Notes: generated by a model from the sequence alone, not told the origin. A DNA stretch of 64,000 nt from an uncultured Rickettsiales bacterium (GCA_964620495.1 CAZUHI010000012.1:9018-73017), one strand, 5' to 3'; shown: positions 1,761 to 62,093, counted from the stretch's first letter. Numbers and translations are program-made.

Positions 1761-1904
1761 CGCGCGGATGATACGCGAGCCGGGATCGGGCCGCGTCTCG
1801 GGCGCGCCGTTCGATCTTGGGGGCGCCTACAGGCACAATGTCCGGTGCCCTCGACCGGCGCGGCGCAGTCGTGCGTCACGACCGAGGCAAGGAGAAACAC
1901 CGGG

Positions 1905-6947: not shown

Positions 6948-7657
6948 CCGCCGCCTCGGATCCACGCGTCGACGAGCCCGGGGAGGGCGATCTCGGAGCC
7001 CTGCTCGACCACGCGATCGAACGGTCCGCCGCTGGGGGCTGGGTTGACCTCCAGGCAGAACGCGCCGCGCGCGGAGGCCCGGGCCGCGAGCCCCGCGGCC
7101 GGGTACACGACCCCGGAGGTGCCCACCGAGACGAAGGTGGTGCACGCGCGCGTGGCGGCTCCGATGATCTCCATGGCGTAGGGCATCTCCCCGAACCAGA
7201 CGATGTCCGGGCGGAGGGCTCCGCCGCAGGCCGCGCACACGGCGTCGGGGTCCTGCTCGCCCGACACCGGCACGCGAGGGTGGGCGTCGGAGCCCTCGCA
7301 CCGCAGCGCGTGCAGGCTCCCATGCATCTCGATCACGTGCTCGGCGCCGGCGGCCGTGATCAGCCCGTCGATGTTCTGGGTGATCAGCACGACGCGCTCG
7401 GCCCCCCACGCCTGCTGCAGCCGGGCCAGGGCGACGTGCCCCGGGTTGGCCGACACCCGCTCGCAGGCGACGCGCCGCTCGTCGTAGAACCGCCGCACTG
7501 TGGGGCGATCACGGAACCACGCCTCGGGGGTGGCGACCTCTTCCACGCGGTGCCCCTCCCACAGGCCGTCCGCGTCGCGGAACGTGGGGATTCCGGAGGC
7601 CGCGGAGAGCCCCGCGCCGGAGAGGATCACGACCCGTTCGAGGTCCATCGTCGCCAT
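6944..7657 (-). CDS. cobB: NAD-dependent protein deacylase, Sir2 family
   Basis: GAGLSAASGIPTFR, LITQNIDGL, HG, Zn-ribbon cysteines C...CAACGG, VGTSGVVYPA. 237 aa from MATMDLERVV. Confidence 0.9.
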   Translation of the reverse strand: MATMDLERVVILSGAGLSAASGIPTFRDADGLWEGHRVEEVATPEAWFRDRPTVRRFYDERRVACERVSANPGHVALARLQQAWGAERVVLITQNIDGLITAAGAEHVIEMHGSLHALRCEGSDAHPRVPVSGEQDPDAVCAACGGALRPDIVWFGEMPYAMEIIGAATRACTTFVSVGTSGVVYPAAGLAARASARGAFCLEVNPAPSGGPFDRVVEQGSEIALPGLVDAWIRGGG

Positions 7658-8600
7658 GGCTCGACGGTACCACCGGGCGGCGGCCCCGACCCCGTGGCAG
7701 CATCGCCCCGTGCCCTCCTTCACCGACCGCCTCTCGGACCTCCCGTTCCTCGGCCTGGGCATCAGCACGGAGTACGGCGCGCACGACGGCGACGGCGCCC
7801 TGGACCTCCGGGCCCTGCAGGCTGCCGCCCCCGAGCTCGCGGCCTTCCTGGAGGTGGGCGTCGAGGTGGAGAAGGGGCTCGACGCCCACGCCGCCGCCTG
7901 GGTCTCGGAGGGGCTCCCGGCCACCTACCACTTCCTCGACGTGAACCTCGACGAACCCGAGGACCTCGACGCCCACTGGCTCGACCGCGTGCGGTCCCTG
8001 GCGGCCGAGGTGAAGCCCGCGTGGATGTGCGGGGACGCCGGGCTGTGGCACTTCGGGCCCCGGGAGCCCGCGCACATGCTCCTCTTGCCGCCCATCCTCA
8101 CGGACGACGCGGCCGGCGAGCTGGCCGAGGGCATCGTGGCCCTGCGCGAGGCGACCGGCCTCGAGGTGCTGCCCGAGAACCCCCCGGGGGCGGTCTACGT
8201 CGGGGATCTGCACCTGCTGGACTTCTTCGCCCGCGTCTGCGATCGCGCCGACACCGGGCTCCTCCTGGACGCCGCCCACCTCGCCATCTACCAGCGCGTC
8301 GCGGGGCACGACCCCCTCGCGGGCCTGGACGGCTTTCCCCTGGACCGAGTCGTGGAGATGCACGTCGCCGGTGGCGTGGTCCGCGAGCACGACGGCTACC
8401 CCTTCGTGGACGACGCGCACGGCTTGGACGTCCTCCCCGACACCTGGGCGGTGCTCGACGCGGTCGCCCCCCGGGCTCCGGAGCTGCGGGCCGTGGTCTT
8501 CGAGGCCGAACGGAACCCCCTCGGAGGCGTGATCGACGGGCTCCGGGCCCTCGCGCAGCGGCTCGACGGGACGCCCTTCGGGGCGAAGCGGGCCTCGTGA
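7656..8600 (+). CDS. DUF692 / MNIO-family (MbnB-like) TIM-barrel iron enzyme
   Basis: LGLGISTEY, YHFLDVNL, LPENPPG, LLLDAAHL, VEMHVAGG...VDDAHG resemble the UPF0276/DUF692 metal-ligand pattern. The start is uncertain: ATG 7656 or GTG 7710. Confidence 0.75.
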   Translation: MARRYHRAAAPTPWQHRPVPSFTDRLSDLPFLGLGISTEYGAHDGDGALDLRALQAAAPELAAFLEVGVEVEKGLDAHAAAWVSEGLPATYHFLDVNLDEPEDLDAHWLDRVRSLAAEVKPAWMCGDAGLWHFGPREPAHMLLLPPILTDDAAGELAEGIVALREATGLEVLPENPPGAVYVGDLHLLDFFARVCDRADTGLLLDAAHLAIYQRVAGHDPLAGLDGFPLDRVVEMHVAGGVVREHDGYPFVDDAHGLDVLPDTWAVLDAVAPRAPELRAVVFEAERNPLGGVIDGLRALAQRLDGTPFGAKRAS

Positions 8601-21034: not shown

Positions 21035-21138
21035 CGGAACTCCATGGGCGGGATCAGGCGTTCGAGGGGAGCCTAGAGCATGGTGCGCGATCCGGGGTCC
21101 GGGGGGCGCCCGCGCGGCCCCTCTGGCATCTTGGGGTC

Positions 21139-43532: not shown

Positions 43533-44747
43533 TCAGGGGACGGCCTCGCCGTGGGTCGCGACGTCCAGGCCCATGACCTCGGTCTCCTCGTCGACGCGCA
43601 GACCCAGGACGACGTCCACGAGCTTGAGCAGGATCCAGGTGGCGATCGCGGCGTAGACGATGGTGGCGACGACGCCCCAGACCTGGATGCCGACCTGCAT
43701 CCAGTTGCCCTCGAGCCCCCCCGCGGTCCCACCGATCGCCTCGACCGCGAACACGCCGGTGAGCACCGATCCCAGCAACCCGCCGACCCCGTGGACGCCG
43801 AAGCAGTCCAGGGAGTCGTCCCAGCCGCCTCGCTTCTTGAGGCTGCTCGCGCCCCACCAGCAGACGAGGCCCGAGGAGGCCCCGATGATGAGCGCGCCCC
43901 CGGGGCCGACGAACCCGGCCGCGGGGGTCACGGCGACGAGCCCGCCGACCGCGCCCGTGACGATCCCGAGGACCGAGGGCTTCCCGAAGCGCCACCACTC
44001 GACCGCCATCCACGAGAGGCCGGCCGCCGCCGCGGCGAGGTGGGTGGTCACGAGCGCCATGGCGGCCGCTCCGTCCGCGGCGAGCGCCGAGCCCGCGTTG
44101 AAGCCGAACCAGCCGATCCACAGCATGCAGCCGCCGATCACGGTCAGGACGAGGTTGTGGGGAGCGAAGTGGTCGCGGCCGAACCCCTTGCGCGGCCCCA
44201 GGACGATCGCCGCCACCAGCCCCGCGATGCCTGCGTTGATGTGCACGACCGTTCCGCCCGCGAAGTCCAGCACCCCGTCCTCGGCCATGAGCCCGCCGTC
44301 CGCCCAGACCCAGTGACACACCGGGGCGTAGACGAGGACGACCCACAGGGCCGAGAACAGGAGCATCGCCGAGAACTTCATGCGCTCCGCGAACGCCCCG
44401 CTGATCAGGGCCGGGGTGATGATCGCGAACGTCATCTGGAAAGCCATGAAGAGGGACTCGGGGATCGTCCCGTGCATGGAGTCGGGGCCCATGCCCAGGA
44501 GGAGAACGCGGTCGAAGCCGCCGACGAACGTGTTGCCGGGAGAGAAGGCGAGGCTGTAGCCCACGACCATCCACAGCACGCTCACGAGGCAGCAGACGGC
44601 GAAGCTCTGCATGAGGGTCGCGAGCACGTTCTTCTTGCGCACCATCCCGGCGTAGAAGAGCGCGAGGCCCGGCAGGGTCATCATGAGGACCAGGGCCGTC
44701 GCGGTGAGGATCCAGGCGGTGTCGGCGGCGTTCAGCGTCTCGGGCAT
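43533..44747 (-). CDS. amtB: Ammonium transporter
   Basis: AWILTATALVLMMT.PGLALFYAG, DFAGGTVVH, GFNAGS, HG.GG..G. Start at MPETLN follows GGGAGG. Confidence 0.9.
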   Translation of the reverse strand: MPETLNAADTAWILTATALVLMMTLPGLALFYAGMVRKKNVLATLMQSFAVCCLVSVLWMVVGYSLAFSPGNTFVGGFDRVLLLGMGPDSMHGTIPESLFMAFQMTFAIITPALISGAFAERMKFSAMLLFSALWVVLVYAPVCHWVWADGGLMAEDGVLDFAGGTVVHINAGIAGLVAAIVLGPRKGFGRDHFAPHNLVLTVIGGCMLWIGWFGFNAGSALAADGAAAMALVTTHLAAAAAGLSWMAVEWWRFGKPSVLGIVTGAVGGLVAVTPAAGFVGPGGALIIGASSGLVCWWGASSLKKRGGWDDSLDCFGVHGVGGLLGSVLTGVFAVEAIGGTAGGLEGNWMQVGIQVWGVVATIVYAAIATWILLKLVDVVLGLRVDEETEVMGLDVATHGEAVP

Positions 44748-44872: not shown

Positions 44873-44913
44873 GTGATCCCCCGTCGCTCGTTTTCTCATT
44901 GATCCCTGGACCC

Positions 44914-44933
44914 CACTGAAAGTATGTTCAGTG
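44914..44933. promoter_or_regulatory. LexA (SOS) box-like palindrome upstream of imuB
   Basis: CACTGAAAGTATGTTCAGTG (CTG-N10-CAG) ends 8 nt before the imuB ATG. 18/20 identical to the site at 50531. Confidence 0.65.
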
Positions 44934-44940
44934 GTCCGCC

Positions 44941-46512
44941 ATGACGGATCGTCCCCCTCGCATCGCGTGCCTCTACGTCCCCGACTTCCGGCTGCAGGTC
45001 TCGCTCACGCGTCTGGGCGGAGAGCCAGAAGGCGGGCTCGCGCTGGTCGATCCGGATGACGGGCGTCGACTGATCGTGGCGGCCTCGCCCGCGGCGCGCA
45101 TCGACGGTGTGAAGCGGGGGATGACGTCCGTCACGGCCTGCGCCCTCGCGCCGGAGCTCACCGTCCGGGAGATCGATCCCGCGGCGCTGTCGGAGGTCCA
45201 CCTGGAGCTCGAGGACGCGGTGCGCAGCCTCTGTCCGCACTTCGAGACCACGGGCGAGGGGGTGATCTACGCCGCCTTCCACGGGCTGGAGCGTCACTAC
45301 GCAGAGGAGGGGGAGGGGGGCTTCCTCGACGATCTTCGCCTCGCCACCGAGCGACTGGGGCTGCCCGCGCGGGTGGGGATGGCGAGCACTCGGTTCTGCG
45401 CGCGGGCCGCGGCCGTCCTGGAAGGTCGCGTGCCCGGCAGAGGGGTCGCCGCGATCTGCGTCGAGCCGGGCGAGGAGCGGGAGTTCCTCGCACCCCTCCC
45501 CATCGAGCTGCTCCCGAACGCCGCGGACGTGGTGGAGGCGATGTACAAGCTCGGAGTCCGCACCCTCGGACGCTTCGCGGGGCTGCCGTCGCCGGGCATC
45601 GCGCGTCGCTTTCGGGAGCGGGGGGTTGCCCTTCAGCGCCTCGCGGGCGGGGAGGACCGAGGCACACTCATCCCGGTGGACGAGCCGCGCGCCTACACGG
45701 TCCGCGTGCTCAGCGACTACCCCATCGAACGATCCGAGGCGCTGCTGTTCCTCCTGAAGCGCCCCGTCGAGCGTCTCACCGCGGAGCTGGACGCGACGGG
45801 GTGCGCTTGTCGCGCGGTGGAGTGGTCCCTGGAGGTCGAGGGGCTCGAGCCCCAGCGGGGAGTCACTCGCTCGGCGGGCCCCTCGGCGTCGGCCAGGCTC
45901 TGGAACGACCTGCTCAAGGTCACGTTCGAGCGGATGGCGCTCAAGGCCGGGGTCCTCGCGGTGCAGCTGGAAGCGTCCGAGATCGGAGAGCGTCCGACCG
46001 ACCAGGTGCGGCTCACCGGCCCTCGCGCTGCCCCCCCCGGAGCCCTCGCGACCACCCTCGCCCACCTCGCCGCGGAGGTGGGGCCCGAGGGCTTCGGAGT
46101 GCTTCGCCCCTCTCCTTCGGTGCTGCCCGAGCTCCGGTTTCGAGCCGAGCCAGGAGACGGTCCCTTCCCCGCGAGTCCGTTGTCGAAGCGGGATCGAATC
46201 GAGTCCTGGGTGCCCGATCGCGCCCCCATCGGCGCGCTCCCCACGGGGCTGCGGTGCGTGATCCCCCCCGTGCTCGTGGAGCCCGATCTCCGGAGCGGTC
46301 GCCTCGTCGGGTTTCGCTTCGACGGGGGCTTCATGCGCGCCGACCGCGTCCTCGGGCCGTGGGACGTCTCGGGTGAGTGGTGGGAGCCCAACCCCATCCG
46401 TCGACGCTGCTTTCAGGTGGAAGGCGCGGGCAGCGAGGGCGAAGGCAGCGTCGCCCACGTCTTCCTCCAGCCGGACACCGGCTCCTGGTTCCTCACGGCG
46501 TGGTTGGACTAA
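44941..46512 (+). CDS. imuB: ImuB-like Y-family DNA polymerase homolog
   Basis: N-terminal IACLYVPDFRLQ, typical of ImuB/DinB-like proteins. About 520 aa. SOS-box context and linkage to dnaE2. Confidence 0.75.
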   Translation: MTDRPPRIACLYVPDFRLQVSLTRLGGEPEGGLALVDPDDGRRLIVAASPAARIDGVKRGMTSVTACALAPELTVREIDPAALSEVHLELEDAVRSLCPHFETTGEGVIYAAFHGLERHYAEEGEGGFLDDLRLATERLGLPARVGMASTRFCARAAAVLEGRVPGRGVAAICVEPGEEREFLAPLPIELLPNAADVVEAMYKLGVRTLGRFAGLPSPGIARRFRERGVALQRLAGGEDRGTLIPVDEPRAYTVRVLSDYPIERSEALLFLLKRPVERLTAELDATGCACRAVEWSLEVEGLEPQRGVTRSAGPSASARLWNDLLKVTFERMALKAGVLAVQLEASEIGERPTDQVRLTGPRAAPPGALATTLAHLAAEVGPEGFGVLRPSPSVLPELRFRAEPGDGPFPASPLSKRDRIESWVPDRAPIGALPTGLRCVIPPVLVEPDLRSGRLVGFRFDGGFMRADRVLGPWDVSGEWWEPNPIRRRCFQVEGAGSEGEGSVAHVFLQPDTGSWFLTAWLD

Positions 46513-46520
46513 ACGGCCGT

Positions 46521-49500
46521 CTAGGTCCTCGGCCGCTCCTCTCCGATCGGCCGGCCTCGGGCGGTGCGCGACATCAGCGTGACCAGCTCGTCCACCTCGA
46601 ACGGAGCGGATCGCCCCGTCCCTTCGAGCAGGCCCGTCACGAGCTCACGCTTGGCCTGCTGCAGCTCCAGGACACCGTCCTCCACCGTGTCCTCGGCCAC
46701 GAGTCGATACACCGTGACCGGCTGGTCCTGGCCGATGCGGTGGGCGCGATCCGTGGCCTGATCCTCCGCCGACGGGTTCCACCACGGGTCCAGGTGAATG
46801 ACGTACGTAGCCGACGTGAGGTTCAACCCGGTGCCCCCCGCCTTGAGCGAGATCAAGAACACGTCGCCGTCGCCTCGCTGGAACCGATCGACCTCATCCT
46901 CCCGACGCTTGGCGGGGGTGGAGCCGTCGATCCACCGGATCCGGGCCCCGTCCTCCTCCAGCACCGGCCGGACGAGCTTCAGGAGCCCCACGAACTGGCT
47001 GAAGACGAGCGCGGCGTGCCCCTCCTCCCGGAGCTGCCCCACGAGCTCCCGGAGCCGCTCGACCTTCGCCGATCGGGCGACGGACTCGGGATCGACGAGG
47101 GCGGGGTGGCAGGCCAAGCGTCGCAGGCGGGTGAGGTCCGCGAGCGCCTGGAACCGCAGCTTCTTCGCCACCTCGGGGTTCTTTCGGGCGGCCTCCAGTC
47201 GCCCCAGCGCCGCCCGTCGGGCCGCCTCGTAGGCGCGACGGGCGTCTTCGGGCAACGTCACCCGCAGCTCCACCTCGGTGCGCGGAGGGAGCTCGAGCGC
47301 CACCTCCGACTTCAGGCGACGCAGCAGGAAGGGACGGATCGCCGCCGAGAGCGCAGCGCGGGCGGACGCGCTCCCCGTGGCGATGAGACCCCCGTACCGC
47401 TGTCGGAACTGCTGGGCCGAGCCCAGCAGCCCCGGGCACACCGTGTGGAAGAGGGACCAGAGCTCGCCCGCGTGGTTCTCGACCGGGGTTCCCGTGAGCG
47501 CGAGGCGGAAGTTCACGCGCAGCTTCCGCGAGGCCCGCGCGCGGCGGGTGCTCGACGTCTTGATCGCGTGCGCTTCGTCGAAGACCACGGTGCCGAAGGC
47601 GCGCTCGGCGAGCTGCTCCAGGTCCCGCACCATCGTGTCCCAGGTGGTGACCACGACGTCGCCCTGCGTGAGGGCCGCGAAGTCCGTGCTCCGGCGGGGC
47701 CCGCGGTGGAGGAACAAGCGAAGGCCCGGGGCGAAGCGCGCGAGCTCGCGCATCCAGTTGAAGCACACCGAGGTGGGCGCCACCACCAGGCTCGGTCCGG
47801 CGGCTCGACGATGCAGCAGCAGCGCGATCGCCTGGACCGTCTTTCCGAGGCCCATGTCGTCCGCGAGGACCGCGCCGGGGGCCCACTGGGCGAGTCGCGC
47901 GGCCCATCGGTAGCCCGATCGCTGGTACGAGCGAAGCTCCGCCCGCAGCCCCGGCGGGAGCGGGGGGACGAACGTCGCCGCCCCTTCGATGCGCTCCGTG
48001 AGCAGGCGCCAGGAGTCCGGCGAGTCGATCTGCACCCCCAGCGCGCCGAGCCGCTCGACCTGCGGGGCGTGGAGCGGCGAGAGGATCCGCTCCCCCCGCT
48101 GGGCCACGACGCCCGACGTGGCCTCGATCAGCTGATCCCGGACGGTCTCGCTGAGGGCGATCCAGCCGTCGTCGTCCAGACGCACGAACCGGCGCCCCTG
48201 CTCGAGGGCGAGGAGGATCTCGGCGAGGCTCATGGACCCGCCTTCGACCTCGAACCGACCGTCGAGGCTGAACCAGCCGTCCAGTTCTCGGACCCGGAGC
48301 TTCAGATCCGACAGGGCGTCCGCGCGGGCCACCCGCAGCTTCCGTTTGCCGGTCCACTCGGCCACCACGTCCTCTCGGTCGCGAAGCCCGTGTACGACCG
48401 CGGCGACGGCCTCGTCTTCCTCCACGAACCACGCGCCGGGGCCGGATCTGTGTACGGCCGCCAGGCCCAGGGCCGCCGCGAGCTCGCGGGTCCGCGCCGC
48501 TTCGTCTTCCAGGTCTCGCAGGACGTGGACGCGACGCCCTTCGACCTCTCCGAAGAGCACCTCCGGCCCCTCCCCGGGGATCACGATCGGGCCGCCCGGC
48601 AGCGGCCGGAGCCGCGCCGCCACGGCCAAGCCCGACGCCGGCTCCAGCCGCACGCGGAGCACGTCGTCGCAGGGGACCTTCGTGCCGCGAAGCGCCGACG
48701 CGAGCTCCACCGGGATCGCCTGCTCGATCCGGGGCAGTCGCTCCAGCAGGGGGGTGGCCGCGTCCGCGTCGTAGTCCAGCCCGCGGTCTCGGAGGATGCG
48801 CAGCAAGGCGGTCGCCGCGGGGCTCAGGTCGACGAGCACGCAGGTGGCGGTCGACGCGTCCATGAGCGGCGCCGGCGCCCCCGCCACGTCGTGGTCCGCC
48901 AGCCGTCGCAGCTCGTCCGGCCGCAGCGACCGTCCCCCGAGCCGCGGGTCCATGACGAGCCCGCCGTCCAGCCTTCGCTCCACGCCGAGGCTGAGCGTCG
49001 CCCGACGCATCGTCAGCGGGGGGCCTCCCCGACCCCCCAGGAAGACGCGGGGGTGGTCGATGAGCAGCGGCAGCGCCTGCAGGACGTCCTCCTCGGTGAC
49101 CCGCGGCCGGCGCCCGAGATCGTCCAGGAACGCGGGGCAGACGAACCCGGCGATCGTGCGGTCCACGGGCAGCTCGAGCCGGACGGCGCCGGAGCGGAAC
49201 GCCCGTCGGTCGGCGAGGCTCGACGTCCAGCCGCCGCTCCGCTTCGGCGTGCACCGCACGGGCTGAAGCGCCCAGGGCCGACGGGTGTGGTCCAACCGCC
49301 AGCCGAGGGGCTCGGGGGCCGCAGGCTCGGCGTGATCACGGATCCCGTGGGCGTCCAAGGCCTCGTCGAACGCCTCGAACGTGGACTGCCACGCCGGGCG
49401 CCCCAGGTCCTCCTCGAAGGCGCGGCGCGCGGCGGCGTGAGGGGGCGCGGCGAGGACCGCCAGGGCCGCCTGCACGGCACGCAGGGCGTCGGGGCAGGTC

Positions 49501-50456
49501 CTCTTGAGGCTCGCGTCGCACCCGCAGCGCACGGCTTCGGTGGGCACGGCTCGGGGGAGAACCTCGATGGACTCCGAGTGGCGGCGCCCCTGAGCGAACG
49601 ACACCACGAGCGTGGGCGGGTCCTCGACCCACCACAGGGCGGCGTTCTCCCACGTCTCGCGGGGCGGCTCGGCGCGTCCTTGGGCGAGCCAGGCGCGCGC
49701 CTCGAGGAGCCGGTCGTAGGCGTCTCCCCGAGGACCGTCGGGGGGGCGAGGGGGGAGGGGAGGATCGAGGTCCGCGACCGGCCTGCGGGCCCCCGCTTCG
49801 CCACGGAGGTCCAGGACGAGCTGCTCCTGGATCCCACGCGGCACCTTCTTGCTGCGCGGTCCCGGGGCCGCGCCGTGGACGCCGGGGGCCGCCAGCGCTT
49901 GGGCGACGGTCGTGGCTCCGCCGCGCCGGTCCAGCCACGCCTCTTCGGCGTCTCCGAAGGGCTGGACGCGGTGGGACGCGGGCTGATGGAGGACGTCCTC
50001 GACCCCGAAGGCGACGGCCCACCGGTCGAGCTCGTCCGGGTCCACGGGCGGATCCAGGGCCGAGGCGAGCCCCTGGGCGCGCTCGTCCGCCATCACCGCG
50101 CGCATGCCGTCCACCTGACGGGCGTGCCTGCGGGCGCGGGTCACGCTCCTCGAGAGGAAGACCCGAAGCGCCCGGTCGAGGACGGCGACGCCCCGCTCCC
50201 CGCAGTGCTTCTCCAGCAGACGCTCCAGGCCGGGCTCTCGAAGCACGTCCCCCACGCGCTTGAGCCCGAGGCCGCGAATGACTCGCCCGCGCGGGTCGCT
50301 CCAGGAGTTGGGGAGGTCCGCGTCGTACCAGGGCTCCGTCCAGGACGAGGTCATGGCGTGGTCGAGCTTCTGAGCTTGCGCCAGGCGCGCGAGGGCGGGC
50401 CAGTCCGGCGCCTCGCGGATCCCGGGGTGGGCGATGGGGGTGACGTCCAGCGGCAC
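46521..50456 (-). CDS. SNF2-family helicase with a long N-terminal extension
   Basis: LADDMGLGKT (motif I), DEAH, LTGTPVEN, helicase-C motifs SLKAGGTGLNLT and QATDRAHRIGQ. Start uncertain: GTG 50456 or ATG 50354. Confidence 0.85.
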   Translation of the reverse strand: MPLDVTPIAHPGIREAPDWPALARLAQAQKLDHAMTSSWTEPWYDADLPNSWSDPRGRVIRGLGLKRVGDVLREPGLERLLEKHCGERGVAVLDRALRVFLSRSVTRARRHARQVDGMRAVMADERAQGLASALDPPVDPDELDRWAVAFGVEDVLHQPASHRVQPFGDAEEAWLDRRGGATTVAQALAAPGVHGAAPGPRSKKVPRGIQEQLVLDLRGEAGARRPVADLDPPLPPRPPDGPRGDAYDRLLEARAWLAQGRAEPPRETWENAALWWVEDPPTLVVSFAQGRRHSESIEVLPRAVPTEAVRCGCDASLKRTCPDALRAVQAALAVLAAPPHAAARRAFEEDLGRPAWQSTFEAFDEALDAHGIRDHAEPAAPEPLGWRLDHTRRPWALQPVRCTPKRSGGWTSSLADRRAFRSGAVRLELPVDRTIAGFVCPAFLDDLGRRPRVTEEDVLQALPLLIDHPRVFLGGRGGPPLTMRRATLSLGVERRLDGGLVMDPRLGGRSLRPDELRRLADHDVAGAPAPLMDASTATCVLVDLSPAATALLRILRDRGLDYDADAATPLLERLPRIEQAIPVELASALRGTKVPCDDVLRVRLEPASGLAVAARLRPLPGGPIVIPGEGPEVLFGEVEGRRVHVLRDLEDEAARTRELAAALGLAAVHRSGPGAWFVEEDEAVAAVVHGLRDREDVVAEWTGKRKLRVARADALSDLKLRVRELDGWFSLDGRFEVEGGSMSLAEILLALEQGRRFVRLDDDGWIALSETVRDQLIEATSGVVAQRGERILSPLHAPQVERLGALGVQIDSPDSWRLLTERIEGAATFVPPLPPGLRAELRSYQRSGYRWAARLAQWAPGAVLADDMGLGKTVQAIALLLHRRAAGPSLVVAPTSVCFNWMRELARFAPGLRLFLHRGPRRSTDFAALTQGDVVVTTWDTMVRDLEQLAERAFGTVVFDEAHAIKTSSTRRARASRKLRVNFRLALTGTPVENHAGELWSLFHTVCPGLLGSAQQFRQRYGGLIATGSASARAALSAAIRPFLLRRLKSEVALELPPRTEVELRVTLPEDARRAYEAARRAALGRLEAARKNPEVAKKLRFQALADLTRLRRLACHPALVDPESVARSAKVERLRELVGQLREEGHAALVFSQFVGLLKLVRPVLEEDGARIRWIDGSTPAKRREDEVDRFQRGDGDVFLISLKAGGTGLNLTSATYVIHLDPWWNPSAEDQATDRAHRIGQDQPVTVYRLVAEDTVEDGVLELQQAKRELVTGLLEGTGRSAPFEVDELVTLMSRTARGRPIGEERPRT

Positions 50457-50530
50457 GGCAGGAGACTACTCGCGACGGTGGGCGGCGGGGATGAGCGAGG
50501 TTCCACGCGGCCCTTGATTCCGGCGAAGAA

Positions 50531-50550
50531 TACTGAAAATATGTTCAGTG
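50531..50550. promoter_or_regulatory. LexA (SOS) box-like palindrome between the divergent SNF2 helicase and dnaE2 genes
   Basis: TACTGAAAATATGTTCAGTG in an AT-rich island. Overlaps the first in-frame GTG of the dnaE2 ORF. Confidence 0.65.
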
Positions 50551-50565
50551 TCAAACGGAGTCGAA

Positions 50566-53500
50566 TTGGGAAAGACCCAGCGAGGACGGCCCTTCGAGGT
50601 CACGTATTCAGGGGGCGCCCACCGCGGTCGCATCCCGATCCCGATCCACGTACGGCCGTCGCCCGGGCAGGGTCACGTCCCGTACGCCGAGCTGCACGCG
50701 CTCTCCACCTTCTCCTTTCGCCGCGGGGCCTCCACTCCGGAGACACTGATCCGTCAGTCGCGTGAGTTGGGGATCACGGCGCTCGCGATCACGGATCGAG
50801 ACGGTCTGTACGGCTCCGTGAGGCACTGGCTCGAGACGAAGAAGGTGAACGACGAGGAGGACGATCCGGACCCCGACCAGGTCACCAAGTACGACGGGAT
50901 CGGCCCCTATGGATCGACCCGACACCACCTGCGTGAGTCCAGCGTGAGTGATGCAGGCAGCGGCCGTAGGTATCCCGTGCCGGGGGCGATTCACGGCTCA
51001 TCGCTCACGCTCACGGACGGGTCACGCGTCGTCGCCCTCGTTCGCGATCGCGACGGCTGGCGCAACCTCTCGGCGTTGATCACGGAGTCCCGGATGTCCT
51101 GCGAGAAGGGCGACGCCGTGCTGCCGTTCGAGCGCCTGGTCGCGCGCCGGGAGGGCCTCACGATCTTGTCGGGGGGGCGCTTCGGGCCCGTCGATCGCGC
51201 GCTCCTCGGGATCGACGGGCTCTCCACGGTGCCCTGGAAGCCGAAGGGGCCGTGGCGTCGCCCCATCGGGGCCTGGAGTCTGGACGAGGACGGTCGAATC
51301 CCGGACGACACGGACGCCGCCCGGGCCGTGCGTGAGGGCCAGTCGAGCCTGCGTGAGTGGACGACGCAGCGGGATGATCCCGCCGCCCGGCTCCGTCGCG
51401 CCACCGAGACGGCGGCCCGGTTCCGCGACGCGTTCGGAGATCGCTTCTTCCTCGAGGTGCAGGACCACCGACTCCCCGAAGATCAATGGCTGCGCGGGCT
51501 CGTGGGCGGCATCGGCGTGGAGCTCGGGATCCCGCGGGTGGCCACGAACCTCGTGCACTACGCGCTCGCGGAGGACCGTCGACTTCAGGACGTCCTCGCC
51601 TGCGTGAGGCTCAAGACCACGTTGCGTGAGGCGGGGACGCGGCTGCTCCCGAACGCTCACTTCCGCCTCAAGAGCGGGGCCGAGATGGCCGCGATCTTCC
51701 ACGACGATCCGGCCGCGGTAGCGATCACGGTGGACATCGCCCGAGACCACGACTTCGACCTCACGGATCTCCCGTACGCCTTCCCGATCCACCCCACGCC
51801 GTCGGGACACACGCTGCAGACGCTGCTCGAGGAGCGCACCTGGGAGGGGGCCGCCGAGCGGTACGGCGAGCGCTTGGAGACGGATCCCCGCATCAAGGGG
51901 CAGATCCGCCACGAGCTCGACGTCATCGGTCGCATGGGGCTCGCCGGCTACTTCCTCATCGTGCAGGACGTGTCGCTCGAGTGCCGTCGTCGCGGGATCC
52001 TCAGCCAGGGGAGGGGTTCCGCCGCGAACTCCTGTGTCTGCTACTGCCTCTGCATCACGGCCGTCGATCCGATCCGGCTGGAGCTGCTCTTCGAGCGGTT
52101 CCTCTCCGAGGCGCGCGGGGGCTTTCCGGACATCGACATCGACATCTCGAACAGCAAACGCGAGGAGGTGCTGCAGTTCGTCTACGAGAAGTACGGGCGA
52201 GACCACTGCGCCATGGTCTGCAACGTCATCACGTACCACCCGCGGTCCGCGATCCGGGACGTCGGCAAGGCGTTCGGGCTGGGGCTGGACCAGGTCGACC
52301 GCATGGCGAAGGCGCTGTCGCACTACGGGGGGTTGGAGGAGCTGGAGGAGCTCTTCGGTGGGCAGGCGCGCGAGGACGCCTCCGGTTCATGCCTTCGGTT
52401 CGGTGCCTTGGGGGACGACGTTCGGACCCTCGCTCAGGTCGTCGACTTCACCCGTCGGCTGTGTGGGTACCCGAGACACATCGGCATCCACAGCGGCGGC
52501 GTCGTGATCAGCGGCGTGCCGATCGGGGAAGCCTGCCCCACCGAGAACGCGACGATGGTCGATCGCACCGTCCTGCAGTGGGACAAGGACGACGTCGCCC
52601 ACACCGGGCTCGTGAAGATCGACCTGCTCGCGCTCGGGATGTTGTCCGTGATTCAGGAGACGGCGCGGCTCCTCGCGCTTCGGGGCATCGACTTCGACAT
52701 GGCCCACCTCACCTGCGACGACCCCTCCGTCTACGACATGATCTGCGAAGGCGACACCGTCGGGCTGTTCCAGATCGAGAGCCGCGCCCAGATGAACACG
52801 CTGCCTCGGCTGCGCCCCCGCAGCTTCCACGACCTCGTGGTGGAGGTCGCGCTCATCCGCCCGGGGCCGATCCAGGGAGAGATGGTCCACCCCTACGTGC
52901 GTCGGCGGCAGGGCAAGGAGCCCATCGAGTACGCGCACCCGAGCCTGCGACCGATCCTGGAGCGCACGCTCGGCATCCCGCTCTTTCAGGAGCAGGCGAT
53001 GAAGATGGCCATCACGGCAGCGGGTTTCACGCCCGCCGAGGCGGACCGCCTGCGCAAGGTGATGGGCTTCAAGCGGGGCACCGAGGAGCTCGAGCGGCTC
53101 ATGGAGAAGATGGTCTCCGGCATGGAGGCGGGGGGCTTCTCGCCGGAGACGGCGCAGCGCGTGAAGAATCAGCTCCGGGGGTTCTCGGCGTACGGCTTCC
53201 CCGAGAGTCACGCCGCGTCCTTCGCGCTCATCGTCTACGCGTCCGCGCACCTCAAGAAGTACCGAGCGCCGGCGTTCTTCGCGGGGCTGCTCAACTGCCA
53301 GCCGATGGGCTTCTACAGCCCGGCCACGCTCGTGGGGGACGCCCGTCGCCACGGCGTCGTCATCGAGCCGGTGTGCGTCAATCGCTCGGATCACCGCTGG
53401 ACCCTGAGCGGGGAGCGGGGGATCCGGGGCGGGTTCCTGCAGGTGGCCGGGCTTGGCGAAGAGGACGGACGATCCGTCGAGGAGGCGCGTCGCCTCGGGG

Positions 53501-54138
53501 GGCCGTTCCTGGGCGTGGGGGACTTCGCGGATCGCTGCGACCTCGAGCGCCCGGTCCTCGAGAAGCTCGCCGAGGCCGGTGCCTTCACGTGTTTCGGGAT
53601 CACGCGGCGGGAGGCGCTGTGGACGGTGGCGGGGTGGAGACGTCGGCTGCCGCTCGAGGGGTTGGTGCAGGAGCGTGAGATCCCGATCTTCGCGAAGCTC
53701 GGCCCCGCGCAGCTCAACCTGCTCGACCACGCCACCGCCGGGTACAGCTCCGACGAACACCCCCTCGTCCACCTGCGTGACGAGCTCTCCAAGCGCCGGA
53801 TCGTGCCCGCCGAGAGGCTCCTGAGGATGCGCTCCGAGCGGCGCGTCGTGGTGGGGGGCGTGGTGATCACGCGGCAACGGCCCGGCACCGCGAAGGGGGT
53901 GTTCTTCATCACCCTGGAGGACGAGACCGGGTTCGTGAACGTCGTGGTGTGGAAGGACCTCTTCGAGAAGCACCGTCGCCTCCTCCGCGCGGTGCGCTTT
54001 CTCGAGGTCTACGGGACCCTCCAGATCGAGGACGGCGTCGCCAACATCCTGGCGAAGCGGTTCGTCGATCTCGAGCAGGTCTCACTCGGCGGGAAGCGCC
54101 TCGGGTGGGACACCCTCAAGTCGCGGGACTTCCACTGA
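50566..54138 (+). CDS. dnaE2: Error-prone DNA polymerase III alpha-like subunit DnaE2
   Basis: YAELHALSTFSF.RGAS PHP start, polymerase core (GRGSAANS, PDIDID), OB fold near the C-terminus. TTG at 50566 follows GGAG. The alternative GTG at 50548 lies inside the SOS box. Confidence 0.9.
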   Translation: MGKTQRGRPFEVTYSGGAHRGRIPIPIHVRPSPGQGHVPYAELHALSTFSFRRGASTPETLIRQSRELGITALAITDRDGLYGSVRHWLETKKVNDEEDDPDPDQVTKYDGIGPYGSTRHHLRESSVSDAGSGRRYPVPGAIHGSSLTLTDGSRVVALVRDRDGWRNLSALITESRMSCEKGDAVLPFERLVARREGLTILSGGRFGPVDRALLGIDGLSTVPWKPKGPWRRPIGAWSLDEDGRIPDDTDAARAVREGQSSLREWTTQRDDPAARLRRATETAARFRDAFGDRFFLEVQDHRLPEDQWLRGLVGGIGVELGIPRVATNLVHYALAEDRRLQDVLACVRLKTTLREAGTRLLPNAHFRLKSGAEMAAIFHDDPAAVAITVDIARDHDFDLTDLPYAFPIHPTPSGHTLQTLLEERTWEGAAERYGERLETDPRIKGQIRHELDVIGRMGLAGYFLIVQDVSLECRRRGILSQGRGSAANSCVCYCLCITAVDPIRLELLFERFLSEARGGFPDIDIDISNSKREEVLQFVYEKYGRDHCAMVCNVITYHPRSAIRDVGKAFGLGLDQVDRMAKALSHYGGLEELEELFGGQAREDASGSCLRFGALGDDVRTLAQVVDFTRRLCGYPRHIGIHSGGVVISGVPIGEACPTENATMVDRTVLQWDKDDVAHTGLVKIDLLALGMLSVIQETARLLALRGIDFDMAHLTCDDPSVYDMICEGDTVGLFQIESRAQMNTLPRLRPRSFHDLVVEVALIRPGPIQGEMVHPYVRRRQGKEPIEYAHPSLRPILERTLGIPLFQEQAMKMAITAAGFTPAEADRLRKVMGFKRGTEELERLMEKMVSGMEAGGFSPETAQRVKNQLRGFSAYGFPESHAASFALIVYASAHLKKYRAPAFFAGLLNCQPMGFYSPATLVGDARRHGVVIEPVCVNRSDHRWTLSGERGIRGGFLQVAGLGEEDGRSVEEARRLGGPFLGVGDFADRCDLERPVLEKLAEAGAFTCFGITRREALWTVAGWRRRLPLEGLVQEREIPIFAKLGPAQLNLLDHATAGYSSDEHPLVHLRDELSKRRIVPAERLLRMRSERRVVVGGVVITRQRPGTAKGVFFITLEDETGFVNVVVWKDLFEKHRRLLRAVRFLEVYGTLQIEDGVANILAKRFVDLEQVSLGGKRLGWDTLKSRDFH

Positions 54139-54845
54139 TGGGCGCCGCCGCTCCGAAACTCGACGAACTCCGGGACCTGCTTCGGTCGAAGTTCCCCGGC
54201 GCGGGGGTCTTGGATCGACCCGAGTACGGGGTCTTGTCGACCGGCTTGGGCGAGCTCGACGCGGTCCTCCCCGGCGGGGTCCCCCTGGGGGCCATGACGC
54301 TGCTCACGGGAGGGGCGTCCTGCGGCAAGACGGGGATCGCGCTGGCGGCCGCGGCCGGGGTCACCCGGGGGGAGGGGAGGGTCGCGTGGGTGCACGACGG
54401 GTCCCTCTCGGCGCCGTCTCTGGCGCACGCGGGGGTGGCGCCGGAGCGGGTGCTTCAGGTCCGGGCCGAGTCCACCGCCCAGGCCCTGCGCTGCACGGAC
54501 TTCCTCCTTCGCTGGCAGGCGTTCCACTTCCTCGTGCTCGACTGGCCCCGACCGGCCGCCCGAGGCCCCGCGTGGAATCGGCTGAACCGCTTGGTCACCG
54601 GAGCGCCCCACGCGCTGATGGTGCTCTGCGCGCCACGGCCCCCCGGATCTCCGGTTCGGTTCTGCGCGGCGGTGCACCTCCGCGTCGAGCGCCACGACGG
54701 CGGCACCCGAGTCAAGCTGGCGAAGTCTCGATTCACGCGCGCGAGCGAACACGCCGTGCTCCGTCGCCGAGGGATGCCGGGCGCTCCGTTCGAGCTGCTC
54801 CCCGAGCACCCCGGTCTGGGACAGCGCCGCCACGAAGACTGGTGA
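54138..54845 (+). CDS. imuA: ImuA-like RecA-fold protein
   Basis: STGLGELDAVLPGGVPLGAMTLL and GGASCGKTG resemble ImuA/SulA-like cassette proteins. The ATG shares one nucleotide with the dnaE2 TGA. Confidence 0.6.
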   Translation: MGAAAPKLDELRDLLRSKFPGAGVLDRPEYGVLSTGLGELDAVLPGGVPLGAMTLLTGGASCGKTGIALAAAAGVTRGEGRVAWVHDGSLSAPSLAHAGVAPERVLQVRAESTAQALRCTDFLLRWQAFHFLVLDWPRPAARGPAWNRLNRLVTGAPHALMVLCAPRPPGSPVRFCAAVHLRVERHDGGTRVKLAKSRFTRASEHAVLRRRGMPGAPFELLPEHPGLGQRRHEDW

Positions 54846-54866: not shown

Positions 54867-56900
54867 GTGACGGAGCCGCCTCCGAACGCCCTACGTCGCC
54901 GGATGCGTGGCTTCCTGACGGTCGCCTGGGTCGTCCTCCTCCCGGTGCTCGCCGCCCTCGCGCGCCTGGTCGGGCACCCGGAGTACTACTTCGACGGGGA
55001 GACGCAGATCCCGCCGACCATCGGCCGCGAGCTCCTCCACGGGCACCTGGCCGACGCGTTCCACTACCAGATCATCGTCTACCAGGGCTCGCTGCTGTGG
55101 GACGCCCTGCTCAGCGCCGGTGCCTACGCCGTCTTCGGGGACCACCTGCTCGCGTGGCACGCCGTCCCCCTGGGCTACCTCGCGGGGCTCTCCGTGGCGG
55201 GGACCCTCCTGCTCCGTCGCCTCGTCGGCCCCGGGTGGTCCCTCCTGTTCCCGGCCCTGCTCGGCACGCTGCCCTTCTTCGTGAAGGACGGGTTCGTCTC
55301 CGGCATCGGCGGACACGCGCCCGGGGCCTTCTACGCGGTGGCCGGGCTCGCCGCCGCCGCGTACTCCGGCGGGGAGGGGGGCAAGCGACGGTACGCAGTG
55401 CTCGCCGGGCTCATCCTCGGCTTCGGGACCTGGTACGTACGCACCGTGCTGCTCGCCATCCCCGCGGCGCTGCTGCTCGTGGGGCACCGCGTGGTCGGTC
55501 GCTTGCTGCTGGTTCTTGGCCTCCTGTCGCTCCCTGTGCTGCTCGCCCTGAACGTCGTGGCGCTGCAGTCCGCGGGCAGTCACGCGGCCGCCCAGGGGAC
55601 CATCGAGGATCTCACCCGCGAGGTGGTCTGGAACGTCCAGGGGACGGCTCCCCACTCGGTCCCCGCGGCCACGAAGGTCCTCCAGGCCACCGGCCCGGGC
55701 ATCCGGACCCTCCTCTTCGCCCAGCCTCACCGCCACCGGACGGTCACGCAGTCCCACCGGCCCCTCGCCTACACCGCGGGCCTGACGTGGTCGGTGGCGT
55801 GGCCCGCGGGCCTGGTCCTCCTCCCCGCCTTGCTCCTGGTCCCCGGGATCCGCCGTCGCCCGGGGACGGTCCCCGGCGTCCTCGCCGTCTTCGCGCTGGG
55901 GGCGGCGTACGTCGGCGCCTATGCCTTCTCGTCGCTGAACCTCGACCCCGGGATCACGGAGTCGCTCCGCCAATACCCGCCGCTCCCCCCCGGCGTGAGC
56001 GGAGGTCGCTACCTCGTCCCCATCTTCGGCGTCCTCACGCTCTCCCTGGCCCTCGCGGTGGGTCTGCTGGGGACCCTCGCGCCCCGGATCGCCGCGGCCG
56101 CGATCGCTCCCGTCCTGGCCCTGGGCCTCATCCCCGCGGCCGGCGACTGGGCCTACGACCGAGACCCGATCGAGATCTGGCGCACGAAGCAGCCGCACAT
56201 CTACTCGGGGGCCTTCGGGCCGGGCCGGGGCCCCCCGCTCGAGGCCCACCTCGCCTGCGACGACCCCGACGAGCAGAGCCGGGAAGCACACCTGGAGGCG
56301 ATCGGCAGGTTCCTCGTGGCCGAGTCGGGCGAAGATCCGGCGTCGCTCGTCGCGTCTGTGGAGCGGCTGCGGGAGACGGGCCGGACGGACGAAGAGATCG
56401 GGAGGCTGGTGGGCAGCCTCGGGTCGACGATGATCCGCGAGATGCGCGGAGGCAGCCTCTCCTTCATGGAGGCGACCAAGCTCGTCTTCGAGACCGCCGA
56501 GGCGCTCGGCCCCGGACCCGGAGACGCCTACCTCCTGGGCACCCGATCGTCGTTCCGGGACGGGGGCCTGGACGCGCCGGCCGCGGACGTGGTCGACCGC
56601 CTCTGCGCGACGGCGCCGTCGGGGACGCGGCCCCTGTGCTCCTTCGCCGGGGAGGCGCTGGCGGACCCCAACGCCGCGCTGTGGCCCGACCGGCCCGAGG
56701 GCCTCTTCCGCCCCGGGATGCCGTCGTTCGACGGCCTCGAGCGCTCCACCCGGGACGCCTTGCTGTTCGGCGCCGCCGCAGCGATCACGAGAGGGACGCC
56801 CGGCGAGCTGCCCGCCGCCTGGCCCGAGGGCTGGGATCCCGAAGATGGGCGGACGTTCGTCCGCAAGTGGAGGGTCAAGGGCGGCCGCGTGGGGCCGTGA
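54867..56900 (+). CDS. Polytopic integral membrane protein with a soluble C-terminal domain (function unknown)
   Basis: Many hydrophobic helices in the first ~450 aa. GC3-rich. Starts 22 nt downstream of imuA. Confidence 0.5.
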   Translation: MTEPPPNALRRRMRGFLTVAWVVLLPVLAALARLVGHPEYYFDGETQIPPTIGRELLHGHLADAFHYQIIVYQGSLLWDALLSAGAYAVFGDHLLAWHAVPLGYLAGLSVAGTLLLRRLVGPGWSLLFPALLGTLPFFVKDGFVSGIGGHAPGAFYAVAGLAAAAYSGGEGGKRRYAVLAGLILGFGTWYVRTVLLAIPAALLLVGHRVVGRLLLVLGLLSLPVLLALNVVALQSAGSHAAAQGTIEDLTREVVWNVQGTAPHSVPAATKVLQATGPGIRTLLFAQPHRHRTVTQSHRPLAYTAGLTWSVAWPAGLVLLPALLLVPGIRRRPGTVPGVLAVFALGAAYVGAYAFSSLNLDPGITESLRQYPPLPPGVSGGRYLVPIFGVLTLSLALAVGLLGTLAPRIAAAAIAPVLALGLIPAAGDWAYDRDPIEIWRTKQPHIYSGAFGPGRGPPLEAHLACDDPDEQSREAHLEAIGRFLVAESGEDPASLVASVERLRETGRTDEEIGRLVGSLGSTMIREMRGGSLSFMEATKLVFETAEALGPGPGDAYLLGTRSSFRDGGLDAPAADVVDRLCATAPSGTRPLCSFAGEALADPNAALWPDRPEGLFRPGMPSFDGLERSTRDALLFGAAAAITRGTPGELPAAWPEGWDPEDGRTFVRKWRVKGGRVGP

Positions 56901-59362: not shown

Positions 59363-59439
59363 GCCCGGGTAGCCCAATGGGTAGAGGCAGGGGACTTAAA
59401 ATCCCCCCAGTGTGGGTTCGAGCCCCACCCCGGGTACCA
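59363..59439 (+). tRNA. 77-nt cloverleaf tRNA, anticodon UAA (would decode UUA Leu), short 5-nt variable region, encoded CCA
   Basis: Acceptor GCCCGGG/CCCGGGT. U8. D stem GCC/GGC with loop CAATGGGTAGA. Anticodon stem GGGGA/TCCCC with loop CT-TAA-AA. Variable region CCAGT. T arm GTGGG-TTCGAGC-CCCAC. A73, then CCA. Confidence 0.7.
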
Positions 59440-62018: not shown

Positions 62019-62093
62019 TGGGGCGTCGACAAGTGGCAAGTCACCGGTTTTTGGTACCGGCATTCGCAGGTTCGAATCCTGCCGCCCCAACCA
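62019..62093 (+). tRNA. tRNA-Gln (anticodon UUG)
   Basis: Acceptor TGGGGCG/CGCCCCA (U1-A72, as in bacterial tRNA-Gln). Anticodon stem CCGGT/ACCGG with loop TT-TTG-GT. T arm GCAGG-TTCGAAT-CCTGC. Encoded CCA. Confidence 0.85.

Follow-up and report, generated by a model that had tools for sequence, protein, structure and literature searches.

A putative LexA-repressed imuB/dnaE2-imuA mutagenesis cassette interrupted by an antisense SNF2 helicase gene

Introduction

A LexA-regulated imuA-imuB-dnaE2 cassette for adaptive mutagenesis is said to have been described by Abella in 2004 and by Erill in 2006. Such imuABC cassettes are typically regulated by LexA and are either contiguous or split (PMC3919608; PMC3901139), and split forms with a separate SOS box for every piece have been catalogued (PMC3901139). 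In Myxococcus xanthus DK1622, other genes lie between the parts of the cassette, and SOS boxes have been reported at the promoters of imuB and dnaE2 (bioRxiv 10.1101/2020.12.14.422803). Here we describe a related locus in a 64-kb stretch of DNA with about 72% GC (CAZUHI010000012.1:9018-73017, referred to at its full length as the window), which probably derives from an uncultured, high-GC marine bacterium related to the Myxococcota. With a probability of about 0.8, we interpret the locus as a LexA-repressed imuB / dnaE2-imuA translesion-synthesis ("mutasome") cassette that was split by the insertion of an SNF2 helicase gene, with LexA binding, promoters and damage induction being predicted. 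The sequences, the gene identities, their conservation and the synteny on which the history of the locus is based were observed directly.

Compared with the described imuABC cassettes, the window encodes the same three families, namely those of the inactive Y-family protein ImuB, the error-prone polymerase DnaE2 and, probably, the RecA-like ImuA, and control by SOS boxes is predicted. The differences are that the gene order in the lineage of the window is imuB-dnaE2-imuA, with imuA in the last position and, in the window, translationally coupled to dnaE2, that an unrelated SNF2 gene of 3.9 kb lies antisense inside the cassette, and that ImuA is divergent (57 bits versus an NCBIfam cutoff of 150). 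The M. xanthus cassette is likewise split and reportedly has two boxes, and the boxes of the window share its CTG-N10-CAG / GTTCAG architecture and agree with its SOS-box consensus at 15/17 positions, but they are nearer to a perfect dyad and near-identical to each other. In addition, imuA precedes imuB in M. xanthus, the gap in the cassette has 6.57 kb with seven cistrons, which are thus on average too short for a 3.9-kb SNF2 gene, and regulation appears to be largely LexA-independent or DdiA-dependent (PMC12288472; PMC9705874). An earlier annotation of the window made from its sequence (the first-pass annotation) had presented this layout as unusual. The departure from the textbook order imuA-imuB-dnaE2 holds, but a split with separate SOS boxes is not unusual, because it has been reported for M. 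xanthus (bioRxiv 10.1101/2020.12.14.422803) and has been catalogued (PMC3901139). A split cassette with several SOS boxes is thus already known. What is new is the order of the genes, the insertion of an SNF2 gene with a probably shared operator, and a predicted motif for poorly studied lineages. The understanding of the imuABC system is unchanged by these findings.

Layout of the cassette and its boxes

The cassette and its boxes occupy the following positions in the window:

44914-44933, no strand: box 1, predicted LexA operator cACTGAAAgTATGTTCAGTG, inside which TATGTT (44923-44928) would serve as the -10 element of the imuB promoter
44941-46512, plus strand: imuB, Y-family polymerase homolog of 523 aa (Pfam IMS, 38.7 bits)
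46521-50456, minus strand: SNF2-family helicase/translocase gene, 1311 aa, antisense between imuB and dnaE2 and convergent with imuB
50531-50550, no strand: box 2, predicted LexA operator tACTGAAAaTATGTTCAGTG, common to the divergent predicted promoters of SNF2 and dnaE2
50566-54138, plus strand: dnaE2 (imuC), encoding an error-prone homolog of Pol III alpha; 1190 aa if started at TTG 50566
54138-54845, plus strand: imuA-like RecA-fold gene, 235 aa; its ATG overlaps the dnaE2 TGA by one base (TGATG)

This layout, imuB / SNF2 on the minus strand / dnaE2-imuA-like, was already recognized in the first-pass annotation and holds by Pfam and NCBIfam family matches. Instead of the canonical single operon imuA-imuB-dnaE2 behind one SOS box, the window thus has the order imuB / SNF2 (minus) / dnaE2-imuA and two boxes. 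ImuB is a Y-family homolog distinct from active DinB, as indicated by the Pfam match and by scores of at most 52 bits with the NCBIfam DinB models, which have cutoffs of at least 256; at the position of the catalytic Asp motif of DinB its N-terminus reads IACLYVPDFRLQ (by eye, no formal alignment). Orthologs of ImuB adjoin dnaE2 in three related genomes (L206, L208 and L209). DnaE2/ImuC belongs to the error-prone subfamily of the C-family polymerases, with 1181 bits for NCBIfam NF004225 'error-prone DNA polymerase' (cutoff 939) and the Pfam domains PHP, DNA_pol3_alpha, finger, HHH_6 and OB. The imuA-like gene product reaches 57.3 bits with NCBIfam ImuA_translesion, which is below the cutoff, and 28.6 bits with Pfam RecA (cutoff 27), and contains a Walker-A-like GGASCGKT; its assignment as ImuA is supported by the conserved cassette position, which is the same place after dnaE2 in L208 and L209. 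The ratios of nonsynonymous to synonymous substitutions (dN/dS) of the three genes are between 0.06 and 0.08 (imuB 0.056 and dnaE2 0.079, both versus the relative L004).

The two palindromes of 20 bp, which had been reported in the first-pass annotation, were confirmed with their positions and sequences, and they are identical at 18/20 positions. Box 1 ends 7 nt upstream of the imuB ATG and also lies in a divergent region, opposite the ammonium transporter gene amtB (43533-44747). The proposed location of box 2 inside the common control region of SNF2 and dnaE2 is borne out by the gene layout. Box 2 had also been described as overlapping the first in-frame GTG of dnaE2. It does overlap GTG 50548, but this codon is probably not the start of dnaE2: TTG 50566 is favoured by gene callers, is preceded at a distance of 5 nt by a GGAG (50557-50560), and aligns with an ATG in L004 and L212, so that dnaE2 probably starts there.

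Palindromes of this type are rare in the window. Allowing at most three mismatches, CTGAAANTATGTTCAG was found at two sites only, versus 0.09 expected from shuffled sequences, none of which equalled the observed count. With a position weight matrix (PWM) built from the confirmed boxes, no site of at least 11 bits besides boxes 1 and 2 was found in the whole window, and an Rfam search returned two tRNAs only and no known RNA element that accounts for the palindromes. Between the window and L004, each box is identical at 19/20 positions and the TTGAT[CT] hexamer upstream of it at 6/6, whereas the rest of the two intergenic regions is 50-59% identical (59% for the remainder at imuB, 50% for the surroundings of box 2), at a synonymous divergence (dS) of the flanking genes of about 0.5-0.9. 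Orthologous boxes are present upstream of imuB in seven genomes (L004, L191, L206, L208, L209, L179 and L212), box 2 is present in L191 and L212, and the imuA orthologs of L004, L206, L179 and L212 have a box of their own.

The convergent genes imuB and SNF2 have their stop codons 8 nt apart, with the palindrome ACGGCCGT filling the gap (46513-46520), whereas L004 has a gap of 0 nt. No terminator was predicted in the stretches scanned, and therefore two damage-induced convergent transcripts would collide.

Evidence for LexA operators

Both boxes have the CTG-N10-CAG dyad of the Myxococcus LexA box. The M. xanthus consensus CTRHAMRYBYGTTCAGS, which the first-pass annotation had given correctly, is quoted in a study in which binding of M. 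xanthus LexA at lexA and recA2 was supported by electrophoretic mobility shift assays (EMSA) (PMC9705874). Counted by eye against this consensus, which comes from another organism, both boxes have mismatches at position 9 (B to A) and position 17 (S to T).

The occurrence of the motif in other genomes is more informative. A pattern of 14 bases proved unspecific, since a scan of viral contigs with it gave at least 120 matches, which were due to chance. A scan of a metagenome collection with ACTGAAARTATGTTCAGT yielded 64 matches. In AT-rich contigs, these were mostly located within open reading frames (ORFs) and looked like chance matches. In GC-rich contigs, intergenic matches were found directly upstream of lexA in L141, L150 and L165, and these lexA genes are genuine, as they encode the Pfam domains LexA_DNA_bind and Peptidase_S24; further matches precede the imuB ortholog and the imuA ortholog in L179. 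At 11-15 nt upstream of lexA, the exact 18-mer is present in the Hydrogenedentota (L141, L150 and L203) as well as in L165 and L205 (a "Deltaproteobacteria" metagenome-assembled genome, MAG). A second scan, with YACTGAAARTATGTTCAGT and one genome per species (185,579 species), yielded 17 exact matches in 16 stretches. Five of the 17 are directly upstream of lexA, dnaE2 or imuB, namely of lexA in L203 (Hydrogenedentota MAG) and in L205 ("Deltaproteobacteria" MAG), of dnaE2 in L190 (Hydrogenedentes MAG), and of both imuB and dnaE2 in L191, a MAG of 72% GC that has the same cassette as the window. The box of the Hydrogenedentota, TACTGAAA[GA]TATGTTCAGT, is located 15 nt upstream of lexA (L203, 969-987) and 18 nt upstream of dnaE2 (L190, 3660-3678), and is found also in L141 and L150, which suggests that the Hydrogenedentota use the same LexA motif as the Myxococcota-like lineage of the window.

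Such a distribution, with an overlap of lexA promoters in two distant lineages and other occurrences ahead of genes for repair and mutagenesis, is the signature of a LexA box. Boxes 1 and 2 are thus almost certainly LexA operators in the organism of the window, a prediction of binding made from the lexA genes of other lineages; LexA control of the cassette therefore rests on comparative evidence, not on a transfer from Myxococcus. The proposal of the first-pass annotation that the palindromes are LexA-type operators is strongly supported by the identical 18-mer in front of these lexA genes. The predicted LexA motif, TACTGAAAGTATGTTCAGT, is of high confidence and is common to the Myxococcota-like marine lineage and the Hydrogenedentota; in the literature surveyed, no description of an SOS regulon was found for either of them, nor one of an SOS box for the Hydrogenedentota.

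The alternative that the boxes are chance palindromes, or remnants of repeats or mobile elements without a regulatory role, is effectively refuted. Non-SOS contexts of the 18-mer do exist, since about a dozen contigs of one family (represented by L126) carry it without nearby ORFs. Chance would, however, leave unexplained the observed number of sites in the window, a conservation far above that of the surrounding intergenic DNA, positions that are fixed relative to start codons and TTGAYC across at least eight genomes, and the strong enrichment upstream of SOS genes.

Several matches in other contexts were also observed. In a pair of contigs with 61% and 67% GC (L159, 612-629, and L178, 5911-5928), the box lies between dnaK and a divergent DEAD-box helicase gene of the 'LYSHQ' type, possibly Lhr- or MrfA-like, which is likely to be a conserved SOS-regulated helicase gene. 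In L130 (533-550; 73% GC), a box with TTGATC 18 nt from TATGTT is located upstream of a gene for a 332-aa protein with weak similarity to AlkA-type 3-methyladenine glycosylases (2h56, E 5.7e-5); this gene, divergent from a gene that looks like pyrE by eye, may be a further regulon member in a close relative. The near-identical marine contigs of the L126 family (L126, L137, L145, L149, L152, L158, L163, L182, L183, L185, L186 and L188; GC 0.39-0.50) have the 18-mer as part of an extended palindrome, GGGGGTGA-box-TTTATCACCCCC, which follows a TTGACT and has no convincing ORF nearby; their origin may be non-bacterial. In L143/L181, a gene for a tyrosine recombinase (Phage_integrase) is found at about 440 nt from the box (L181, 1551-1568), which recalls LexA-controlled integrases, but the distance is large. 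In L146 (2786-2803), a second palindrome, CTGAACAGGGCTGTTCAG, follows immediately after the box, so that the two possibly act as tandem operators; no Pfam match was obtained for the first ORF downstream (127 aa).

Promoter anatomy

The following promoter elements were predicted:

44899-44904, plus strand: predicted -35 element of imuB, TTGATC, conserved at 6/6 positions between the window and L004
50463-50468, minus strand: conserved hexamer TA(G/C)TCT, 6 nt upstream of the SNF2 GTG, identified from alignments and the L212 sequence
50514-50519, plus strand: predicted -35 element of dnaE2, TTGATT, 17 nt from AAATAT (50537-50542) and 20 nt from TATGTT
50527-50554, minus strand: predicted SNF2-directed, sigma-70-like promoter TTGACA-N16-TATTCT, with the core of box 2 as its 16-nt spacer

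In the imuB modules of six genomes, TTGAYC is 17-18 nt from TATGTT. Altogether, the arrangement TTGAYC-N17/18-TATGTT, with the latter hexamer within the box and the start codon 0-15 nt beyond it, was found in nine modules from eight genomes. The recurring module is predicted to be a -35/-10 promoter with the -10 element buried in the operator, from which a leaderless mRNA or one with a very short leader would be transcribed. The -35 element of dnaE2 is conserved at 6/6 positions in L004, and TTGAT is conserved in L212. TTGATT-N19-TATGTT was considered as the dnaE2 promoter and rejected, because the spacer is actually 20 nt, so that AAATAT, with a spacer of 17 nt, is preferred as the -10 element. 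The three SNF2-bearing genomes all have these distances at dnaE2, where TTGATY is 20 nt from TATGTT and 17 nt from AA[GA]TAT.

On the opposite strand, TTGACA-N16-TATTCT matches at 10/12 positions, whereas 0.1 such matches were expected in shuffled sequences, and the counterpart in L004, TCGACA-N16-TATACT, likewise matches at 10/12. This geometry is shared by the lexA promoters of L205 and L165, which consist of TTGACT, the box as spacer, and then TATA... Because box 2 forms the spacer of the SNF2-directed promoter, the helicase gene would probably be repressed and induced together with dnaE2. In L212, the box is 33 nt from the SNF2 GTG, and any SNF2 promoter there must therefore overlap the operator or lie beyond it. 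Co-repression of SNF2 by LexA is thus a reasonably probable, though by no means assured, prediction. It is a speculative possibility that TA(G/C)TCT serves as a proximal -10 element of a leaderless SNF2 transcript; no matching -35 element was found for this hexamer.

In the proposed mechanism, LexA would occupy both boxes in undamaged cells and block RNA polymerase. Upon DNA damage, the self-cleavage of LexA, stimulated by RecA, would free both units together, and the co-induction of SNF2 with dnaE2 would be a by-product of its landing site.

History of the locus

The cassette was compared with those of its relatives (the percentages are DnaE2 identities with the window):

L208 and L209 (60% and 58%): contiguous imuB-dnaE2-imuA, no SNF2, no membrane gene; one box, before imuB
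L206 (68%): imuB-dnaE2, two opposite-strand genes, then imuA; boxes at imuB and imuA
L179: imuB and imuA split by a small unrelated gene; boxes at imuB and imuA
L212 (84%): imuB, SNF2 (minus), dnaE2, imuA, no membrane gene; three perfect boxes
L004/L191 (92%): as in the window; boxes at imuB, dnaE2 and imuA (27-nt insertion; imuA box seen in L004 only)
Window (100%): imuB, SNF2 (minus), dnaE2-imuA, membrane gene; boxes at imuB and dnaE2

The SNF2 protein of L004 is 82% identical to that of the window. In L212, the SNF2 ORF is intact with 1311 codons (it had been shortened by the gene caller), and the contig that encodes P0003, an SNF2 protein of 74% identity, has the same gene order, the feature that was compared for this contig. 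No SNF2 gene is present at the imuB-dnaE2 position in L206, L208 and L209, which are found in the same chromosomal neighbourhood as the window cassette (ion channel, SDR, MBL hydrolase, BolA, PDZ-thioredoxin ... small protein, Hsp70). A separate box accompanies the orphaned gene in every case of a broken cassette, in agreement with the individual SOS boxes described for split imuABC cassettes (PMC3901139; PMC3919608) and with the two boxes reported at the split M. xanthus locus (bioRxiv 10.1101/2020.12.14.422803).

The most parsimonious history would start with an ancestral imuB-dnaE2-imuA operon with a single promoter/operator. The SNF2 gene of 3.9 kb would have been inserted in antisense orientation in the ancestor of the clade with DnaE2 identities of at least 84%, cutting dnaE2-imuA off from the imuB promoter, and dnaE2 would have gained its own promoter-operator, a module of TTGATT followed by the near-identical box. 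A separate imuA box would then have been present in the SNF2 clade, which the window would have lost, with imuA being fused to dnaE2 via the TGATG overlap; the membrane gene would have arrived later. The first-pass annotation had described the cassette as rearranged. The synteny of L208, L209 and L206 argues against a shuffle: by parsimony, the ancestral order in this lineage is imuB-dnaE2-imuA, and the event is an insertion of SNF2.

The locus resembles a natural experiment, in which three different insertions broke the same operon across closely related uncultured genomes, namely SNF2, the two genes before imuA in L206, and the small gene in L179. A separate module of a promoter and a LexA box is found at the orphaned gene after each insertion, which illustrates selection for SOS control of error-prone polymerases. 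A pressure to keep error-prone polymerases under SOS control has reportedly been proposed by Erill and colleagues.

The relatives are labelled as Proteobacteria, Deltaproteobacteria, Myxococcota or "Rickettsiales" MAGs, and their taxonomy is uncertain. The label 'Rickettsiales bacterium' of L191 (CAZEKB010000045.1, 72% GC) and L209 (PBHG01000061.1, 59% GC) is probably wrong; it is implausible because of the GC contents of 59-72% and because relatives are labelled Myxococcota or Deltaproteobacteria.

Points against LexA control and SNF2 insertion

Several observations weigh against the interpretation of the locus as a LexA-repressed cassette split by an insertion. Both boxes deviate from the M. 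xanthus consensus at two positions, and EMSA showed no binding of M. xanthus LexA to the recN box of the same species, which likewise has two mismatches (PMC9705874). Proteomics of M. xanthus suggests that the levels and the induction of ImuB and DnaE2 are largely independent of LexA and that DnaE2 depends on the XRE regulator DdiA (PMC12288472), and hence LexA control of the cassette is not universal in the phylum. The genomes in which the box was found upstream of lexA belong to other lineages and do not include that of the window. At dnaE2, the distance of 20 nt between the -35 element and TATGTT means that a weaker -10 element (AAATAT) must be invoked, the SNF2-directed promoter was not found in L212, and all promoters and transcripts described here are predicted and not experimentally mapped. 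Lastly, the choice of an insertion of SNF2 over its loss is one of parsimony and does not come from a rooted tree.

The first two of these points would be accommodated if the palindromes were operators of another damage-responsive regulator, such as an XRE protein like DdiA or a PafBC-like activator: dnaE2 expression in M. xanthus is DdiA-dependent and the abundance of ImuB is LexA-independent by proteomics (PMC12288472), and the boxes are off the M. xanthus LexA consensus. We regard this as very improbable, because the overlap of the identical 18-mer with lexA promoters in two distant lineages is a signature of LexA autoregulation, because the dyad is that of the Myxococcus LexA box, and because the genes that follow the motif (lexA, imuB, imuA, dnaE2, a glycosylase and helicases) form a classic SOS regulon. 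Repression by LexA thus remains the preferred interpretation of the two boxes.

The SNF2 helicase

The product of the inserted gene belongs to the SNF2 family, with scores of 189.4 bits for Pfam PF00176 SNF2-rel_dom (cutoff 24.9) and 82.5 bits for PF00271 Helicase_C (cutoff 23.5), and the closest solved structure of its core is 1z63 (E 2.6e-85). For the N-terminal 835 aa, Pfam gave no match. An AlphaFold2 model of residues 296-835, with a predicted local distance difference test score (pLDDT) of 82.6, resembles only the N-terminal region of ZorD from the Zorya system (8qy7, E 2.9e-5), and a fork-recognition module was not among the matches listed in the fold search with the N-terminal model. 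The gene has a dN/dS of 0.156 versus L004, which indicates a functional gene under purifying selection, though less constrained than imuB, dnaE2 and imuA. Its GC content at third codon positions (0.91) is typical of the genome.

The protein shares the SNF2-rel_dom and Helicase_C core with SCO1167/SCO6262, the SWIM-SNF2 proteins, ZorD and the PADLOC 'DpdE' cluster, and its N-terminal region has a ZorD-like fold; in comparison with the SWIM-SNF2 proteins, its SWIM motif is degenerate (C-x-C-x7-C-x-D). Its scores are below all curated NCBIfam cutoffs (SCO1167 451 versus 1200, ZorD 209 versus 1500, DpdE 56 versus 500, DrmD 64 versus 610-950), and it is thus not assigned to the SNF2 proteins of defence systems, that is, ZorD of Zorya, DpdE of Dpd or DrmD of DISARM. 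PADLOC had labelled it 'DpdE' over nearly its full length (659 bits, a broad cluster), a label that was rejected in view of the score with the curated model and the lack of dpd genes nearby. No Zorya or Dpd partner genes (zorABC, dpd) were found among the annotated neighbouring and other genes of the window, the neighbours being imuB, dnaE2 and amtB. To our knowledge, none of the SCO1167/SCO6262, SWIM-SNF2, ZorD and DpdE families is SOS-regulated.

The first-pass annotation had suggested that the helicase may belong to the SOS regulon and may be functionally tied to the mutasome. The first part is plausible, as box 2 is the spacer of the predicted SNF2 promoter; the second part is unsupported, because the linkage is confined to a narrow clade. 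When the divergent pairing of SNF2 and dnaE2 was followed in relatives, it was found to be kept within the clade with at least 84% DnaE2 identity, but the next-nearest SNF2 homologs are unlinked and box-less. Specifically, the identity of SNF2 homologs drops from 74% to 43%, and all five homologs examined beyond this drop are unlinked to imuB or dnaE2; for three of the five, DNA was available, and no box was found in it at a PWM score of at least 6.

These results bear on the possibility that SNF2 was co-opted to work with the mutasome or in SOS damage tolerance, for instance by remodelling stalled forks or by clearing proteins ahead of ImuB-DnaE2, and that its position and its operator were selected, by analogy with eukaryotic Rad5/HLTF, which act with translesion polymerases. 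Such a role would fit an intact gene under purifying selection, a position kept in the four SNF2-bearing contigs examined (the window, L004, whose locus looks like that of L191, the contig with P0003, and L212), the use of box 2 as the spacer of a strong predicted SNF2-directed promoter in two contigs together with its proximity to the SNF2 start in L212, and the DEAD-box helicases with the same box in other lineages. We nevertheless consider it unlikely: the linkage exists only in the one clade, the sister lineages (DnaE2 identities of 58-68%) have no gene between imuB and dnaE2, the five distant homologs (at most 43% identity) are unlinked and the three with DNA are box-less, the N-terminal fold matches only the ZorD N-terminal region and, among the matches listed, no fork-recognition domain, a tblastn search with the family-specific SNF2 region against 72,556 plasmids gave no match, and no paper that ties SNF2 to imuABC or a LexA regulon was found in the literature surveyed. 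The specific version in which an SNF2 translocase was captured into the SOS regulon by a shared bidirectional LexA operator and now assists ImuB-DnaE2 at damaged forks or gaps, which would make it the prokaryotic equivalent of the partnership of Rad5/HLTF with translesion polymerases, appears slightly less probable still. SNF2 is best regarded as a native helicase gene that came to lie in the cassette and would have been placed under LexA control by its position. It is thus a candidate for a new SOS-regulated helicase, in one narrow clade only.

The membrane protein gene and other features of the window

Downstream of imuA, the window contains a further gene of the same orientation:

54867-56900, plus strand: gene for a polytopic membrane protein with about 9-10 hydrophobic segments, 677 aa from GTG 54867 or 665 aa from ATG 54903

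Depending on the start codon, it follows imuA by 21-57 nt, and no terminator was predicted after imuA, so that read-through is possible. Co-transcription with imuA, as had been proposed in the first-pass annotation, may thus occur, but a link to the cassette is made improbable by the late arrival of the gene: it is present in L004 and absent from L212 and from the sister lineages L206, L208 and L209, and with a dN/dS of 0.363 it is the least constrained gene of the region. No match was found in Pfam, NCBIfam or PADLOC. The gene is probably a late insertion that is unrelated to the cassette.

Elsewhere in the window, a gene at 7488-8600 (plus strand) encodes a RiPP (ribosomally synthesized and post-translationally modified peptide) precursor-modifying enzyme of the MbnB/TglH/ChrH family (Pfam PF05114, E 1.7e-22) and may mark a small cluster for a peptide natural product. 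An enzyme with flavin adenine dinucleotide (FAD) that resembles tryptophan halogenases is encoded at 432-1826 (minus strand). An unusual fusion protein of 916 aa (18386-21136, minus strand) combines an amino-acid kinase, an ACT domain and a pyridoxal phosphate (PLP)-dependent Orn/DAP/Arg decarboxylase, and is possibly an aspartokinase joined to a diaminopimelate decarboxylase. The two tRNA genes (Rfam RF00005) are located at 59363-59436 and 62019-62090, downstream of the Hsp70 gene region.

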